A stretch of DNA of 48,456 bases, from IMG/VR virus record IMGVR_UViG_2850808358_000014; one strand, written 5' to 3'. Shown here piece by piece: positions 1,025 to 45,492 of this stretch (position 1 is the stretch's first letter; each line of letters starts with the position of its first letter). A model generated the notes under the pieces. It was not told where the DNA came from, made no database searches, and worked only from the letters and a program-made list of their open reading frames with translations. Source of the stretch: a virus. Lineage: Duplodnaviria > Heunggongvirae > Uroviricota > Caudoviricetes. Made by a program: the position numbers and the translations under genes.

Positions 1025-1295
1025 ACCGTAAGGGTTGGTTTTTTCTTGGCACGAGAGTAGTTTAATTGACCGTGTAACCGCATGATTTTAATCAATATTA
1101 TTGATTCAACTTTTAAACCGTATAACCAAACGTATAACTAAAATAATTTGCTGAAAAAATGCACAATTTAAACGGCGATTGCCCTAGCGACTTCCATGAT
1201 TCTACCTGGATTTTTTTTCGCTCATTCGTTTTTAAGCTGGTGGATGTTCCCCGATATGGGGATCACCACCTACCGGAATTTTTGCCAGGTTATAT

Positions 1296-1416
1296 GTTAA
1301 CCGCTGCCCTGTTAACATTTTTACCAAAAAGGTAGTTAACATTTTTTACACGCAACCAGATGAATCATAAAGGGAAAATCAATAAAAACGCTTCATCAGG
1401 TAGTTAACATGTTAAC
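1296..1416. repeat. cluster of five GTTAAC-core repeats (two as GGTAGTTAACAT)
   Basis: Read directly in AT-rich non-coding DNA; a sixth GTTAAC lies near 1520. Confidence 0.5.
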
Positions 1417-1820: not shown

Positions 1821-2071
1821 ATTGGGCGTGGTCATTATGACCATTCCCAAAAACCCCATATTCGTGGTTTTTCTGTGTCGGGGCTATTCTGCTGTTGCCG
1901 TGCTGGTGGATATTCTCCGGTATGCGGCTCCCCATATCGGCATCAGGCCCACCAGCGTGAAGCGTTTTTCATTTTTCGCGGGTATAAAAAATCGATGGGG
2001 CTAGCAGTCCGGAAGAGGTCAGGGCACAGAGATTTGACCCGCCCCTCCCTGTGCATTAGCACAATAAGTGA

Positions 2072-2095
2072 CCGAAGGCGGAATTCCGCCCTCGG
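2072..2095. repeat. GC-rich near-perfect palindrome CCGAAGGCGGAATTCCGCCCTCGG
   Basis: Inverted repeat with one mismatch; no flanking T-run, so not a clear terminator. Confidence 0.4.
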
Positions 2096-2189
2096 TACTT
2101 ACATATGAGAAACGATATTTCTTCCACCGATACCCTTTATTTGGGTATCGCGAGTAAGCCCCAAAATCTGGGTGTTACTCTTACTACCC

Positions 2190-2272
2190 AAACTACGGGT
2201 AGTTTCCGTAGTTTCATAGTCGAGTTGCAGATCTGCAACTCGCCACCAGTTGCTAAGTGCATTTTTGCACTT
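2190..2272. promoter_or_regulatory. cluster of three palindromes 3' of the HTH gene (candidate protein-binding or packaging sites)
   Basis: AAACTACGG-N7-CCGTAGTTT; perfect 20-bp GAGTTGCAGATCTGCAACTC; AAGTGCA-TTTT-TGCACTT. Confidence 0.4.
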
Positions 2273-2289
2273 TCGGTAATATCAACCAG

Positions 2290-2674
2290 TTACCGCCGTA
2301 AGTGCTCCGGCTTCCTCCACTGGTAAGTATTTTTCGCGCTCTCCCTCCGTTGTTGAGAACGGCGACGATATGCCAGCAACTCAAGGACTCTTGTTCGTAT
2401 GTTGCGCATATCCACGCCGTTAAGCTCAATACCGTCACGGCGCATCACCTCAGCCACCACACGCGCGTAATTTTCAGCGGTGACGCTGTCCGGCTGCGTG
2501 GCCACCTGTTTGCCTGTTGCCTGACAGATTCCGGTAATACGGCGGATTACTTTCAGTAGTTCGGCGTCGGTCATGGTTATGGTTTCCATAGTGATGGGGG
2601 AACAATTTCTGTAATCTGCGAAGCTGGCGATCGGTCAGACTCAAATGCCTGGCAACTTCAGTCTGAGTAGCCAC
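2290..2674 (-). CDS. small HTH DNA-binding protein, reading frame apparently disrupted
   Basis: GTG-start ORF with SD GAGGTG (N-terminus MATQTEVARHLSLTDRQLRRL, HTH-like) overlaps a 99-aa ORF in another frame; the first frame ends in a His/Arg-rich tail. Confidence 0.45.
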
Positions 2675-6163: not shown

Positions 6164-7917
6164 TTATAAAAACGCGTCGCACTCGTCTGTTGTTATTGCG
6201 TTAGTCTGCGTTACCCCCTTAACTTTCCGCGTAATATATTCATGTCCGTAAACTTTTGCGGCAGGCTTCATAGCCTTGCCAAAGTCATTTACGTTTAGCG
6301 GTTTGCTCCTGCCTGCGTATGCCATAAACGCCAGATAGACGCGGTAAAGGCTGTTCCTGGTCGTGTACTTCACTGAATCACCACCGCCACCCATCATCAG
6401 GCCGCGCGCTTCCTCCAGAAAATTCAGGAACTGGCAAAACTCAATAACCGGATCCGTCTGTTGCTTTATTGCCAGTGCTTCATCACCGTCACGCTGTTCC
6501 AGTAGTAAAGCCCGTGCCTTCTCAGGGTCGGTAAAGTTCGCCAGCAATCGGCGGATAATAACGGGGATTTCAGCCGCAATCTTTTCCGGTAGCTCCCTGT
6601 CTTTTTCGGCCTCACTGACGATATTGTCGAAACGGAAAATCACGCGACGACGTGCCACACCTCCGGCCCGTTCGGTGAATATCATCGGGTTGTTGTCGGT
6701 CGCCAGCACCACCGCCCTGATTACCGCCGTGAAACGCTTTTCATATTTCGGGTTAATTTCCACGGGTCGCCGCCCGTGATTTTCTTGATGCCCGTTCCTT
6801 CGCCTGTATATTTCGGCTGGTCAGCCAGGACGATAAGACGACTCCCGACAACCTGCGCACGTCCACCAGCATCATCAAGCGATGTCATTTCAGCGCTTAC
6901 CGTGTTCTGTTTCCCTGCCAGAAGGCTGGCTATGTGTGTGAATGTACTTTTACCGCTCCCGCCGTCTCCGGTGGCCTCAATAAACATCTGCCAGTCGTAC
7001 CGGTTCGCCATAATCATGTAAAGCGCGGCACATATGCGCATCATCTTGCGCGGGTCTTTTCCGGCTGCGTGATCAAGCCATTTATGAAAGTTTGGCGCGT
7101 TGTCGCGGATATTCTCCCCTGGTGCTGGTGGCGTGTACTCAATGCCGTTGTGCGTGGTGATCCAGTTCTCCGGCGTGTGCGGGGAAAATTCCCCCGTTTT
7201 CAGGTTAAGCACACCATTAGTGAACGGTAGCAAATCACTGGACGGCTCGCCCATCGGGTCAGCAATAACTTTTAACGCTTCAACGGCGTTATTAATTGCC
7301 CGCTTGCTGAATGTGGCCCCGTGTTCTGAATAAACCGCCACCATTTCGCGGCTCAGTTCCATTGTGCTGACCGGACACCATATCCCGCCGCGCCATACGT
7401 GAACGATTTCACTTTCCGGATGCACACAAACGCCATCAAATCGACCAGCAAGCATCTGTGCGCGCTCACTGTCTGCCATCTGCGAAAGTTGCGCCTTTTG
7501 CTTTACCGGAAGCTCAATGACCAGACCATCAGAAAGATTCTGGCGTTCACGGGCCAGATATTCGCGCCAGTTCTGCACCTCCTGGCCGTGCATACCCTCA
7601 AGATAAAAATTTGCATCCTGTACACCTGCCGCCGCCAGCTTCTGACCAATCGCCTTGATCATTACAGGCTCAAGATGTCCGGCTCTGTATATGCGTGCTG
7701 ATTTTCTGCCATCCGGCACAATTTGCAGATTATCCAGTTCGGATAGCTGCTGCTCTCCAAGCCACACAGGAGGCTCATTATCTCCGGCTGTACGCGCGTC
7801 ATGTTCCTGCCACTGTTTCGCGTGTGCCCAGGCATCACTACCCGCAAAGATAATTACCTCTGTGTCTTTGTGTTTTATTCCGCGTGGCTGTTTTTTTACG
7901 TTCGGTGCCAGTTTCAT
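6164..7917 (-). pseudogene. P4-family primase/helicase, frameshifted
   Basis: 398-aa fragment with toprim-like N-terminus and Walker A GDGGSGKST, plus a 199-aa fragment in another frame; the join ...ITGGDP|VEINPKYEK falls at a G/C run near 6765. Confidence 0.75.
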
Positions 7918-8213
7918 TTTTTACCCCTGAATACGTTAAGCATCTTTTTTATTTCCTGAATATTGGCGCGTGCTTTCTCCCTGCTGGTGGGCACGTTACG
8001 CGGTACGGCCTGCACAAGAGAAAAATCACGGTCGAACTGATAAACAGGCATCACGCAATCATATTCGTAGCCTTCACGACGGTAGGTTACGCGCCGTTCC
8101 TCCACGCCCTTAATTATTACCGTGCCGCCGTACTTATCGCGGTAAATATCCCCGCGCATGAATTTAGTGCGAGTTTTGCCGCTGGCAGTTAAGCCAGGAT
8201 ATTTAAGTTTCAT
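7914..8213 (-). CDS. hypothetical protein, 99 aa
   Basis: Intact ORF whose stop overlaps the primase start; no family recognised. Confidence 0.5.
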   Translation of the reverse strand: MKLKYPGLTASGKTRTKFMRGDIYRDKYGGTVIIKGVEERRVTYRREGYEYDCVMPVYQFDRDFSLVQAVPRNVPTSREKARANIQEIKKMLNVFRGKK

Positions 8214-8218
8214 TATTT

Positions 8219-36649: not shown

Positions 36650-37039
36650 TTACAGAAGTGAGGGCTGGTACTGGCGGTATTTCAGCCGTCGCATCCGGCG
36701 AATGGCCTTGTAAACCGTATTGAAAGTGACACCATAACGGGTGGTCAGTTCGCTGACGTTGCGACCGTTAAAATCATTCCAGATACGCAAATCCCGAATC
36801 AGCGAGTCCAGAACCTGACCGCGTGGAATGTAGACCTGACCGCCGCCCAGATGCTTACAGATAGCCACAACAATCTCCAGTGAATGGGCAGGATCAACAC
36901 CCAGCCGGGACAATTCCCCGCGTAGTAAATCGTTCAGCTCCGCCAGCAGTGCCGGAAAGCGTGACGTATCCTCTGCGGGATTGTCAAGATGTGCCAGGAT
37001 GGTGTCATCCTGCAAATCACCAAATAAATCTTCCGTCAT
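36650..37039 (-). CDS. mor: Mor, middle operon regulator
   Basis: 129 aa, MTEDLFGDLQDDTILAHLDNPAEDTSRF... matches Mu Mor. Confidence 0.95.
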   Translation of the reverse strand: MTEDLFGDLQDDTILAHLDNPAEDTSRFPALLAELNDLLRGELSRLGVDPAHSLEIVVAICKHLGGGQVYIPRGQVLDSLIRDLRIWNDFNGRNVSELTTRYGVTFNTVYKAIRRMRRLKYRQYQPSLL

Positions 37040-37586
37040 TGTGCCATCCTCCGTGTCTTTCTGGCATGGGCATAAGCCGCCGTCATGGCATCATAGCCGC
37101 GCAGTTCACGACCAGACGGACTGACCGGCAATGGAATCCCGTGACGGGAAAAGGCTTCACGAATACAGCGGATGTGCCACTGTTTCAGGGTTTCAAGCAC
37201 AACTTGCAACGATTCTCCGTGGCACCAAGCCAGCGTGGAAACACCCTGTCCGCCATTACGTTTCGCCGTCAGGCGCTGAACATATTTATCCAGCGCCACA
37301 TCACCGCCATCGGTAATAAAACCGTCTTCTGCCATCTGCTGCCAGACTTTGTATACCTTCTCGCGGGAGTGACATGCCCCTTAAAGCGGCGACGTGGATG
37401 TTTATTCAGCTTCTTAAAGCCGCGTTCTTTCATGGCATCGAGCACCTGTTCCAGTTGCGTAACCGTAAGCTCGCGGCAACTGGTTTTGCCCGTTTTCTGC
37501 ATCAGAAAAGCGCGGTAAGTGTCGTCGTCGAGTTGTAGCTCCCGACGGGCGACATGGATTAATTTAATCAGGGATGTGCGATTCAT
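37036..37586 (-). pseudogene. gemA: GemA, frameshifted
   Basis: 105-aa and 99-aa fragments; join ...HPRRRFKG|ACHSRE... at a G/C run near 37378. Confidence 0.85.
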
Positions 37587-37655
37587 GATCGTACCTCCGG
37601 AAAGAGGCGGTGCTGCAACACCGCCTGAATTTACACATCAATCAGAGAGGATTTT

Positions 37656-37922
37656 ATGGAAAATAATGTACAACCTTATGATGTTGCAGGTTATGCGATT
37701 GCATCAGCACTGGTGCGCCTTCTGGTGAAGAAGGCGATCATCACCGCAGAAGAGGGCCAAGCCATTTTCAGCTCTTCAGCAGAGATTTTAAAAGATGCGC
37801 CTGCAATGAGAACAAGCCGCCGCGAAAAACTGCAACTGTCAAAGATCATGGAAGACATTATCAGTTCGTTAGACCCAGATGCTGACGGATCTCAAAAGCC
37901 TCAAACACATGAGCGTCAGTAA
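37656..37922 (+). CDS. opposite-strand 88-aa ORF with strong RBS in the early-operon gap
   Basis: AGAGAGGA-N4-ATG; overlaps the 3' end of the upstream early gene by about 60 bp; a competing 56-aa same-strand ORF exists. Confidence 0.35.
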   Translation: MENNVQPYDVAGYAIASALVRLLVKKAIITAEEGQAIFSSSAEILKDAPAMRTSRREKLQLSKIMEDIISSLDPDADGSQKPQTHERQ

Positions 37923-38178
37923 CAATATCCTGGTCTGATAACCCCAGCCTGCGGCGGATGTACTCCTCGCGGGCTGTTTCATTTTGCAGTGCCACTAATG
38001 TTTCCAGACGATTCATTTCGCGGTTGATAATGTCACGAACTTCTCTGGCAGTGAGAGCGTGCTTAATACCATATTCAACGATAGCGCGAACACGTTCCAG
38101 CATCCTTTTTTCAGCCATGACGTTATCAATATTAAGGGGAGTAAATTTAGTTTCATTATCCATATTATTCACCTTCAC
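37861..38178 (-). CDS. Mu early-region protein (gp14-like)
   Basis: 105 aa, conserved position. Confidence 0.75.
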   Translation of the reverse strand: MKVNNMDNETKFTPLNIDNVMAEKRMLERVRAIVEYGIKHALTAREVRDIINREMNRLETLVALQNETAREEYIRRRLGLSDQDIVTDAHVFEAFEIRQHLGLTN

Positions 38179-42497: not shown

Positions 42498-44494
42498 TTA
42501 AATGGCTTTTTTACGTCTGTTCTGTTCCAGAATATCCAGCGAATGATTCAGATATTCATCACGCTCAGTTTCGTATTCATCATCACGCTCCTGATTCTTC
42601 ACTCGTTCCGTATTACCGGAAGGCCGGAAAATGCCGACAATTCGTGATTCTGGTGCTTCAGGTTCGGCTATCTGCGGCAGCAGCTCTGCCACTTCCAGTG
42701 CATCCATTTGTTTCTGTGCCTTAATCGCTGCTTTCGTCGCAGATTTCAGTTGTTTCTGGCGGCGGCGATATTCACGGCCTGCCGCAGCATCATTAAACGC
42801 AACAGGTGCCAGACATTCCGCTTCACAGATAAACCGACCGTCCAGGGTGTAGCAATAAACCGTGCTGTGTAACTGCTGTGGATCAAATCTGACCACAACT
42901 TTTTTCACTCCGGCATTCATTAACGCCATGTTGTAATAAACGTTTTTCGCGCCTTTAAGGGAGCCGCCAACTTTAAGCGCGAACTCGCCTTTACGTGAAA
43001 CGTTCACCGCCTCGGCAGGCAGTAACAGCATCCGTTTTTGCTCTTCGGTAGGCTTACGCACAATCGTTCTGGCGTATTCACGCTCAAAAACGTCATCAAA
43101 CGAAAGTTTGCCTCCGCACATTTCTGTTTCACGGCCTGTTCTGGCATTGAACATCGCCACACCTTCGGCAAGGGTTTTCAGAAACAGCTCTGCATCAACA
43201 GCGCGGTCGCCATAGTTATCAGGTTTTGCCTGCGGATTTGGCCCCGTATATGCGCCAGCCAGTGCCGGATGCTTATCAACGTATTCCTCAAGCCCACCAA
43301 CACCGAAAGCACGTTCAACAGGTTTTGCCTGGCCCCAGCCTTTACCGGCAACAACGCTTGTCCAGTGCATTTTCGCCCCATCAGTAAAAACAGTCCTTTT
43401 GGATCGTCCTCTTTTACCTTAAAGCGGTAGCGATTGGGCGCGCCTCCCGTCAGCCATTTATTCGCAGCACCACGGGTGTTATCAATGGTGATGTGAAAAT
43501 CCTCCGGGATACCGTAGCGAGTCACAACATCCATGAACGAGAGGCGAATTGAATCAATGTTCTCGCTCACATCGCAGCGCCAGCCCAGAATTTTTCGGGT
43601 TTTCACATCCTGCCAGAACCATGTTTTCGGACGGATCACATCACCGTTAAACCAGCGTACAAAGACGTTATGCAGATAACCGTCGCCGTTGATCCACTGC
43701 ATGGCGTCCAGGTGTTCCACAGTTCGCTGCTGTGCCGGTATCAGATGCATCAGTGCATGTTCACCTTCACGACAGGCAACAACCATTGCCTCGTCCAGTT
43801 GCTGAATCCGGCGAAAGGCCGTGGCACGGGAGGGAATACTCCAGCCATGCTCGCGGGCTGCCAGTTCCAGACGCTCATAACATTTGCGGAAGGCGGGTTT
43901 TTCCGGTCGCAGATAATCTGCAATCAGAAACTGCCAGGCATCCTCGTCAAATTCACTTTTGTGAACATTGCGACGGGATGCTCCACGTCCATCAACAAGT
44001 GCAGCCGCCCAGTCAGGCTTCGCAAACTTCTGTACCTGGTAATACTTGTCCCGCAAAGTGGATGCGCTGACCTGGTAATGCCCTGCAACGGTCGCAAAAG
44101 CCGTTTTCGTTGAAATCCCCTGGTTCAGCATTTCGTCTGCAGCCTGAACCGCAGGCAACCATTTTTCAGCAAGTCTGCGCTGGGAATCGCTGGCGTTATC
44201 CCATTTGCTCCACAGTGCCTCACGATCATAATCATGGGCTTCCAGCGTGGGGCGGGCGATTTCAAAATACCCCTGGCTTGTTTCTATTTGCTCAGATTTT
44301 AATAACAACTCAGCACGTGCTGCCGCTGGTAGAACTGATATATGAAATTCCAAAGCCTTTGAACCCGTACGCTTGCGACGTAGTTCTGGATGATTGGCTG
44401 CAAGCTTTTCAAGATTGCGGCGAATACTCACCTCATGTTTAGGAAAGCATGACATTCCTACGCATTCTTGCGCTGTTACCCAATGGGTTAACAT
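42498..44494 (-). pseudogene. A: DDE transposase A, frameshifted
   Basis: 448-aa and 290-aa fragments both match Mu A; join ...FLLMG|AKMHWTSVV at a G/C run near 43377; N-terminal ~65 aa differ from Mu (D108-type). Confidence 0.9.
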
Positions 44495-44714
44495 GATGTT
44501 TTCTCCATATACCGAGAAGGCCAAATCTGGGCTGGTTCCATATCCAAATATCTAGCAATGATTGCTTCGTATCGTGGTATATGGCAGCGAAATACGTTAC
44601 GCATAGTGTCAGGCTTTAAGCCTGCCTCTCTGGATAATTGAGATAGTGTCTTCCCTTCATACGAACAGCAGCCTTTATCTGCTCTGCGTGCCAGTCTTGG
44701 TTTTTTGCTGACAT
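44488..44714 (-). pseudogene. ner: Ner-like early regulator (D108-type), frameshifted
   Basis: MSAKNQDWHAEQIKAAVRMKG then a frame slip near 44654; corrected it reads ...KTLSQLSREAGLKPDTMRNVFRCH... and ends overlapping the A start. Confidence 0.75.
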
Positions 44715-44883
44715 TCTGCGATCCTTACTCTCTTAACGTTTTCGGTAACTGATACCGGCTACCGCTATCGGGAAAAACGATAGCGCAGAAAAATGCGCAT
44801 TTCAAGAGCTGTGCGCATTTTTATTTTAACAAATGCAAATCAAAGCATTCTGTAAAATTCTTTATATAACAGAGAGATTGAAC
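44715..44883. promoter_or_regulatory. operator/promoter region between ner and c
   Basis: Divergent intergenic region, the position of operators O1-O3 and promoters Pe/Pc in Mu. Confidence 0.65.
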
Positions 44884-45492
44884 ATGACAGGCGAAAAAGA
44901 AAGCAAAAATGCAGAGCGCATTTTTATGCCCTCGGAAATAATGCGTTTCAAGGAACGCCTTGAAGAGGCAATGAATGGAGAATCAAGCCGGGCGTTTGCA
45001 GCTAAGTGCGGACTTTCTGATGGGGTTATCAGAAACTACCTGTCTGGCAAGACATACCCGTCTTTAGATCGATTAGCACAAATAGCCTACGCAACAGGGC
45101 GTCCAATAGAGTGGTTTATCCAAAGTCAGAGCATGCCAATGGTTGAGCATAAAAATGCTCAAGAGAATAAAAATCCTCAACCTGACCGCAGCACATTGAA
45201 AACTAAACTGATCGCAATTGTCGAATTGTTAGAGGACAAGGAACTGCATTCTGCGATTGAGTTGTTCAGAAAGAAAGGATTTGAAGCTCTTATGCCTGAG
45301 ATTTTTTCTTCCGATGATTCCATCCAGGCTGATTTGCAAGGTATTTCGCAGCAAACCTTACAAACAGCCAAAATGCTTGAATCATTACCAACAGATACCC
45401 GTAAAGAGATTTTGTCAAAGTATGGTATTTATGAACAGGAAGGTCTTGTAGCTCCTTCACAAGAACCACAAGATGTAAAAAAAGCCGTATAA
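44884..45492 (+). CDS. c: repressor c (non-Mu N-terminal DNA-binding region, Mu-like C-terminus)
   Basis: C-terminus ...ILSKYGIYEQEGLVAPSQEPQDVKKAV is close to Mu Repc; start taken at the second ATG, with an SD. Confidence 0.85.
   Translation: MTGEKESKNAERIFMPSEIMRFKERLEEAMNGESSRAFAAKCGLSDGVIRNYLSGKTYPSLDRLAQIAYATGRPIEWFIQSQSMPMVEHKNAQENKNPQPDRSTLKTKLIAIVELLEDKELHSAIELFRKKGFEALMPEIFSSDDSIQADLQGISQQTLQTAKMLESLPTDTRKEILSKYGIYEQEGLVAPSQEPQDVKKAV

Follow-up and report, generated by a model that had tools for sequence, protein, structure and literature searches.

Results

Organisation of the interval between gene 14 and gemA

The window, i.e. the whole stretch of 48,456 nucleotides analysed here, contains a Mu-like prophage whose early operon lies on the minus strand. 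Between the gp14-like gene and gemA there is a gap of 274 bp (37587..37860), in line with the roughly 275 bp given in a preliminary description of this DNA, and inside it lie two mutually antisense open reading frames (ORFs). The features of the interval and its surroundings are as follows.

36650..37039, minus strand: mor
37036..37586, minus strand: gemA, in two pieces that both match PF06252, divergent from gp15 across a 69-bp spacer
37606..37625, no strand assigned: inverted repeat GGCGGTG-N6-CACCGCC, between the Shine-Dalgarno sequences of gemA and gp15
37641..37863, no strand assigned: putative dispensable cassette of 223 bp with flanking ATCA microhomology, missing from the Yersinia phages vB_YpM_3 and vB_YpM_23
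37645..37651, plus strand: gp15 Shine-Dalgarno sequence GAGAGGA, its GAGG core 5 nt from the ATG
37656..37922, plus strand: gp15 coding sequence, 88 aa plus stop with an ATG start, ortholog of Mu Mup15/gp15, phrog_8747
37691..37858, minus strand: same-strand ORF of 55 aa (Mu_54 of AF083977.1), probably not a gene
37861..38163, minus strand: gp14-like gene, 100 aa from its ATG, phrog_6075 (E=2.3e-52)
37945..37985, plus strand: predicted gp15 intrinsic terminator within the gp14 coding sequence, hairpin 37945-37976 plus the T-run TTTCATTTT at 37977-37985

The preliminary description had singled out the 88-aa ORF on the opposite strand, together with its Shine-Dalgarno sequence and an overlap of about 60 bp with the 3' end of the upstream gene. 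All of these are present as described, and the convergent overlap of the gp15 and gp14 3' ends measures 62 nt (37861..37922). The low opinion it held of the same-strand ORF was equally justified, as this ORF encodes 55 aa (56 codons including the stop), its product is rich in Ser, Ala, Arg and Phe with a pI of 10.0, and no Shine-Dalgarno sequence is visible upstream of it in the window.

Existing annotations of the interval

With phage Mu the interval shares 97-98% identity, and the opposite-strand gene has been catalogued there before. RefSeq NC_000929 places Mup15/gp15 (NP_050619.1) at complement 7896..8162, on the strand opposite to the early operon. The window ORF is 98.9% identical to Mup15 over residues 1-88 (tblastn), the sole difference being Q35 in the window and K35 in Mu, and it matches phrog_8747 (E=4.7e-60) over profile positions 1-88 of 88. 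The idea that an antisense gene at this place would be unusual, and possibly new, for Mu is not upheld, since the original Mu annotation already contains it. An opposite-strand gp15 is also annotated in the SfMu record, and of four E. coli prophage records inspected, three have it as a PGAP call and one has the ORF intact but unannotated. A longer version, 'F-134', appears in the 1991 record of the Mu left end, labelled putative, and the UniProt/BFVD entry Q38493 is this older 134-aa version of Mu gp15.

In the updated GenBank record AF083977.1, gp15 has been dropped and a same-strand gene, Mu_54 (AAF01092.2), stands in its place with an annotated ribosome binding site (RBS) of 3 nt. The same record annotates a 'semi-early promoter' at Mu 8151..8217 (37602..37668 in the window), which spans the gp15 start and for which the reference given in the record is PMID 9454718, as well as a TransTermHP terminator within gene 14. 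An update of the Mu annotation is acknowledged in PMC9239132. The D108 records carry no annotation in the 376-bp gap between gene 14 and gemA. The comparison with Mu and D108 proposed in the preliminary description supports an opposite-strand gene in one respect, through the RefSeq gp15, and not in another, as AF083977.1 has the same-strand Mu_54; D108 is blank. Two public annotations of Mu are in conflict over this interval, RefSeq/PGAP with gp15 and AF083977.1 with Mu_54, and the opposite-strand gene found here is a rediscovery of the catalogued Mu gp15, the strand of which is disputed between databases. Our search of the literature for Mup15, gp15 or Mu transcriptome data returned nothing usable.

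Relatives and conservation of gp15

A second gp15 allele with approximately 70% nucleotide identity occurs in E. coli genomes (loci L007-L009). When 1.84 billion representative proteins were scanned exhaustively with HMMER, gp15 relatives of 86-90 aa were identified at 47-52% identity, and a profile search added further ones, the diverged homologs being overall 44-52% identical. These relatives are found in Mu-like prophages of Salmonella and E. coli and have kept the ORF, the start codon, the Shine-Dalgarno sequence and the position, with gemA on the minus strand, a 69-bp gap, and the ORF on the plus strand overlapping a gp14-like gene by 56-62 nt. The ORF is thus more than a chance occurrence: each of the 42 fetched loci with the family motif, 15 distinct DNA alleles between them, has it intact. 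The start codon is preceded by a purine-rich, Shine-Dalgarno-like motif (GAGG, AAGG or GGAG) in 7/7 aligned upstream regions from six sequence types. Taken together, the family ranges over Mu-like elements of E. coli, Shigella and Salmonella and Mu-like phages isolated on Yersinia, and a search of the GTDB species-representative genomes yielded no relative. A 1438-aa acidic repeat protein (P0006), matched in 12 stretches, was taken as a low-complexity artefact and discarded.

Two observations on individual alleles were also made. The gp15 alleles of L007 and L008 differ mostly in one central patch at residues 39-58, KSAAVVAAEAPVLRTTNDSA in the former and EAAASGAAEAPALRTTNNPI in the latter; given a pairwise dN/dS of 0.7-0.95, this patch may be a locally fast-evolving surface. 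In a Salmonella Aberdeen prophage (L011), an IS256-family transposase gene (PF00872; 3236..4444, minus strand) is inserted in the 3' end of the gp15-like gene and replaces the C-terminal third of its protein (P0007).

A superfamily of opposite-strand proteins upstream of gemA

We surveyed the region directly upstream of gemA, hereafter the slot, in 63 IMG/VR loci encoding GemA. In close enterobacterial relatives the slot holds the Mu-type gp15, the E. coli-type gp15, a D108-type ORF of 119 aa, a 79-aa ORF (L030/L031), an 80-aa ORF (L066) or an unrelated gene of 134-138 aa. Some slots are empty, either as deletion variants or as loci without a convincing divergent ORF. In every locus examined, members of the gp15 family are divergent from gemA across a spacer of 63-73 bp and overlap the 3' end of gp14 convergently. 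The D108 member is located as follows.

L004 (GQ357916.1) 1056..1415, about 7853..8212 of the record, plus strand in the locus: D108 ORF of 119 aa, phrog_38610, with the Shine-Dalgarno sequence AAAGGA

A canonical terminator with a 13-bp stem and TTTTTTGTT lies downstream of this ORF, which is unannotated in GQ357916 and NC_013594; only Mu_3F6 (LR595867.1) annotates it. The slot proteins of D108 and L066 are related by BLASTP (E=7e-15). Plain BLASTP detects no relationship between gp15 and the D108 protein, which is seen with profiles only: an alignment of the D108, L066 and L030 proteins matches the gp15 alignment with an hhalign probability of 94.6% (E=7e-8) over gp15 residues 3-46, and phrog_32893 is matched by all four slot-protein types. 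On the strength of these BLASTP, hhalign and phrog_32893 matches, the small slot proteins are assigned to one superfamily found only in enterobacterial Mu-like phages, of which D108 has an unannotated member. The 119-aa protein of D108, the 80-aa protein of L066 and the 79-aa proteins of L030/L031 resemble gp15 in slot, orientation, Shine-Dalgarno sequence, gene 14 overlap and terminator, but are only 16% identical to it in the aligned core, and the D108 protein further differs in its C-terminal half and in having an additional acidic stretch at the N terminus.

The 134-138-aa gene (L036-L038, L046, L047, L050, L051, L053, L058, L062, L073) matches phrog_585 (E=3e-31) and, weakly, DUF2513, and starts 30 nt from the gemA start. 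Its kinship with the superfamily was considered and is not supported, hhalign of the D108-type alignment (A4) giving a probability of 6%. Separately, two Salmonella prophages (L012 and L013) carry a second opposite-strand gene of 111 aa without a Pfam match (2052..2387, plus strand) beside a 63-aa same-strand gene, both inserted between gemA and mor.

Codon statistics of the two antisense frames

Because gp15 and Mu_54 share their third codon positions, plain 3-periodicity cannot tell the frames apart. Third-position periodicity was dropped as a frame discriminator for this reason and used for gp15 codons 1-12 alone, which lie outside Mu_54; for the remainder, the frame tests used diverged relatives. 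In codons 1-12, the differences at codon positions 1, 2 and 3 number 1, 2, 7 and 0, 2, 6. Over the 56 shared codons, the between-clade BLOSUM62 sums are 116-135 in the plus frame versus 61-85 in the minus frame, and in gemA, which served as a control, the true frame beats the equivalent antisense frame in 13/13 sliding windows. A control with gp13 was not usable, as the E. coli prophage gene at the gp13 position could not be aligned. Codon differences confined to position 3 are synonymous in, for example, 13/16 cases in the plus frame versus 11/20 in the minus frame. The NG86 between-clade dN/dS is 0.16-0.39 in the plus frame versus 0.45-0.57 in the minus frame, values that are rough because dS is saturated between the clades, and all of these frame statistics come from a small family. 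They point to purifying selection on gp15 in the plus frame. With 15 phage genes as the training set, the codon-usage log-likelihood ratio is +38.6 bits for the plus-strand ORF versus -7.1 bits for the minus-strand ORF; the true and antisense frames of the controls scored +62.7 versus -84.9 bits (gp14) and +59.2 versus -84.5 bits (mor).

The Mu_54 frame is open in the E. coli alleles of about 70% identity, where its start is shifted by one codon; an in-frame stop interrupts it in the Salmonella alleles, which also lack its ATG. The openness of this frame carries no weight: when gp15 is recoded with synonymous codons, 57% of the recodings still have a stop-free antisense run that equals or exceeds the observed length. 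The antisense frame is so often open because Tyr and His are missing from gp15 residues 14-68 and Gln occurs there only twice. Conservation of the Mu_54 ORF, start codon and RBS was not found in the relatives, and its product has no PHROG or Pfam match.

Transcription signals around gp15

The predicted terminator of gp15, which corresponds to the TransTermHP terminator of AF083977.1, is strand-specific. The region folds with -26.4 kcal/mol (z -2.9) on the plus strand versus -21.1 kcal/mol (z -0.4) on the minus strand, and a GC-rich hairpin with a T-run follows the slot gene, on the strand of that gene and inside the gp14 coding sequence, in 6/6 sequence types. Across the six types, 92% of cells in the 13-bp helix are paired versus 37-56% in slid controls, and three pairs show compensatory double changes. 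Several pairs are G-U on the plus strand and would be A-C mismatches on the minus strand. These alignments provide good evidence for a plus-strand transcript that would end at the gp14-embedded terminator.

Scanning the 200 nt that precede the gene in each of the seven aligned upstream regions, we found no plus-strand sigma-70-type promoter, and there was none further upstream through gemA and mor; the scans were consensus-based, so that a weak or activator-dependent promoter could escape them. The only promoter-like consensus in the interval, TTCTCA-16-TAAAAT at 37785..37812 on the minus strand (9/12), lies inside the gp15 ORF and is directed towards gemA, and the count of such matches in the interval is no higher than in shuffled sequence. 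Rfam gave no relevant match in the interval.

The inverted repeat lies 19-21 nt upstream of the gemA start in the window and in L004, L006, L007, L011-L015 and L030. The Mu, D108, 79-aa and deletion types all retain it; it has a one-base change in L066, is absent from the loci with the 134-138-aa gene, and stays with gemA where the cassette is deleted. Read in the early direction, the repeat leads into a T-rich run whose strength varies: TCTTTCC in Mu, TCTTTTTC in L012 and TTTTTTTT in L011. The repeat may be an attenuator or terminator before gemA-mor, a 5' hairpin or stabiliser of the gem transcript, or an operator.

Loss and composition of the gp15 cassette

The slot behaves as an accessory-gene cassette, filled in D108 and other prophages by alleles that look unrelated. 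The Yersinia phages vB_YpM_3 and vB_YpM_23, which form plaques, have lost it cleanly and retain no more of gp15 than residues 69-88; in vB_YpM_3, the hairpin and gemA come immediately after the gp14 stop. The GC content of the slot is 44% (range 39-45%; 0.39 in D108) versus 53% for gemA plus mor and 0.52 for the prophage; that of gp13-14 is also low (0.47).

Predicted properties of the gp15 protein

The gp15 product is a small, soluble protein of 88 aa with a pI of 5.3. An AlphaFold2 model built from an 8-sequence alignment predicts four helices at moderate confidence (mean pLDDT 67), consistent with the helix-rich product anticipated in the preliminary description. The helices at residues 8-25 and 31-46 belong to the better part of the model (pLDDT 80-89 over about residues 11-40), and the C-terminal tail is predicted to be disordered; this tail is the part encoded in the gp14 overlap and is poorly conserved. 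Fold searches with Foldseek against PDB and BFVD returned only Mu's own entry, and gp15 has no match in Pfam or PADLOC.

Discussion

The results of the current study allow a choice between the two annotations of the gene 14-gemA interval of Mu. Conservation, frame statistics, codon usage and the strand-specific terminator agree in supporting the plus-strand frame as the coding frame, and this comparative evidence identifies the ORF at 37656..37922 as a genuine protein-coding gene, the ortholog of Mu gp15, read against the early operon. RefSeq and PGAP are probably right to call gp15, and AF083977.1 is probably wrong to call Mu_54, which is probably a non-coding shadow, a by-product of the gp15 frame. 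A conserved same-strand gene in the references had been named in advance as the finding that would speak against an opposite-strand gene; Mu_54 is a same-strand reference gene, yet it is unconserved in diverged relatives, and the opposite-strand gene is therefore not refuted by it.

Three other explanations of the interval were weighed. The converse of our reading is that Mu_54 is the real gene, translated from the early polycistronic mRNA, and that the 88-aa ORF is its accidental shadow. Mu_54 is curated in AF083977.1 with an RBS, it would leave all early-region genes on one strand, and its frame is open beyond Mu, in the second E. coli allele. Its frame is nevertheless interrupted in the Salmonella alleles, has the lower BLOSUM sums, the higher dN/dS and a negative codon-usage score, and lacks both a visible Shine-Dalgarno sequence and a family match, while openness of the kind observed is expected in more than half of gp15 recodings. 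Moreover, Mu_54 leaves unexplained the 3-periodic substitutions in gp15 codons 1-12 and the plus-strand terminator, and D108 has no Mu_54 homolog but does have an opposite-strand ORF of the gp15 superfamily; we therefore regard Mu_54 as very unlikely to be the gene of this interval. It is also highly improbable, and to a similar degree, that neither ORF is translated and that the interval is regulatory DNA or RNA, be it the gem 'semi-early' promoter with its leader or an antisense RNA acting on the early transcript. The annotated semi-early promoter, the conserved inverted repeat with its early-strand T-run just before gemA, and the full complementarity to the early mRNA of a plus-strand RNA ending at the terminator would all suit such a role. 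Regulatory DNA would not, however, account for a protein conserved at 44-52% identity with dN/dS well below 1 and synonymous third-position changes, for the preservation of start codon, Shine-Dalgarno sequence and length, or for the profile-profile homology to the D108-type proteins, and the interval is without a match in Rfam. An antisense-RNA role is possible alongside coding, not instead of it.

The remaining explanation accepts gp15 as a gene and makes it a divergently transcribed DNA-binding regulator of gemA-mor, acting on the inverted repeat in the spacer. The divergent architecture, with a perfect 7-bp inverted repeat between both start codons, invites this idea, as do the motif L-x-x-L-V-x-K-G-I-I-T, which is superficially like the end of a winged-helix recognition helix, and the weak DUF2513 match of the 134-138-aa gene that occupies the slot of other prophages. 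The inverted repeat, though, is invariant while the slot proteins diverge to below 20% identity, and it persists where the slot gene is deleted. The gp15, 79-aa and 80-aa proteins have no Pfam match of the HTH or winged-helix kind, the D108 protein has only a sub-threshold match to CARD, the D108-type alignment shows no kinship to the DUF2513-like group by hhalign, Foldseek finds no structural match, and most members of the superfamily are acidic. We consider a regulator of this kind very improbable.

The best overall explanation, which we hold to be likely, is a genuine gp15 gene that forms an accessory unit expressed when the early operon is repressed. We propose that a short plus-strand transcript would start in or near the 5' region of gemA, be translated from the GAGG Shine-Dalgarno core, and stop at the terminator embedded in gp14. 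Transcription from the early promoter (Pe), strong in lytic growth, would collide head-on with this unit, and for that reason the lysogen, with its early operon repressed, would be the most likely setting for gp15 expression, as for a moron or lysogenic-conversion gene. The gp15 protein would most likely bind another protein, of the host or of an incoming phage, rather than be an enzyme.

Several features of the gp15 slot are those of morons or lysogenic-conversion cassettes, as defined in PMC4378225. Between one constant pair of neighbours, related phages either carry a single gene or lack it; the GC content of this gene is below that of the flanks, and it appears to have a terminator of its own. 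Unlike morons, gp15 shows no promoter of its own in plus-strand consensus scans of the seven upstream regions. From these features we infer that gp15 is a dispensable, moron-like accessory gene. A further comparator is olg1/sie1 of the Pseudomonas Mu-like phage Fc02, a superinfection-exclusion gene with transcription in the lysogen (PMC9936078). Like gp15, it runs opposite to the early lytic operon of a transposable phage and overlaps early genes, but its location, the repressor-ner region with full overlap of gene 10 (PMC9936078), differs from that of gp15, which lies before gemA and overlaps only 62 nt of gp14. The resemblance is one of architecture only, and a sequence relationship is not expected.

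A broader and more doubtful proposal is that the slot is a dedicated hotspot for small opposite-strand genes that diversify rapidly, comprising the gp15 superfamily and the unrelated 134-138-aa gene. These genes would be active in the lysogen and shut off by head-on early transcription once the prophage is induced, would encode either a protective function (superinfection exclusion or defence) or a counter-factor against a host or phage factor, and their mRNA would act as an antisense brake upstream of gemA-mor. We offer this only tentatively and think it rather unlikely to hold as a whole.

Mu is a reference phage with two public annotations that disagree, and the comparative evidence supports the older gp15 call. 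Beyond the known gp15, the present analysis adds the evidence on the strand, the D108 homolog with the wider superfamily, and the conserved terminator embedded in gp14. If expression in the lysogen is true, gp15 would be the only gene of the Mu early region read against the early operon, and a candidate for a lysogenic-conversion or exclusion function. For Mu biology overall it is a minor accessory gene.

Other features of the prophage

In the window, gemA is split into two ORFs on the minus strand (37269..37586 and 37036..37335). The split is caused by a 1-nt deletion near 37368, where the window has CAC-TCCCG and Mu, D108 and E. coli RM8082 have CACGCCCCG; this represents either a pseudogene or an assembly indel. 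The MuA transposase gene (42498..44524, minus strand) is likewise split into overlapping ORFs, 43178..44524 and 42498..43370, with the break inside the DDE_2 domain (profile positions 1-118 and 118-221); this second frameshift suggests a defective prophage or assembly indel errors. At the left end, at the position of the Mu repressor gene, a 219-aa ORF (44833..45492, plus strand) is divergent from the early operon. The only Pfam match of its product at E<=0.001 is HTH_3 (Cro/C1-type), and this prophage may have an immunity region different from that of Mu.
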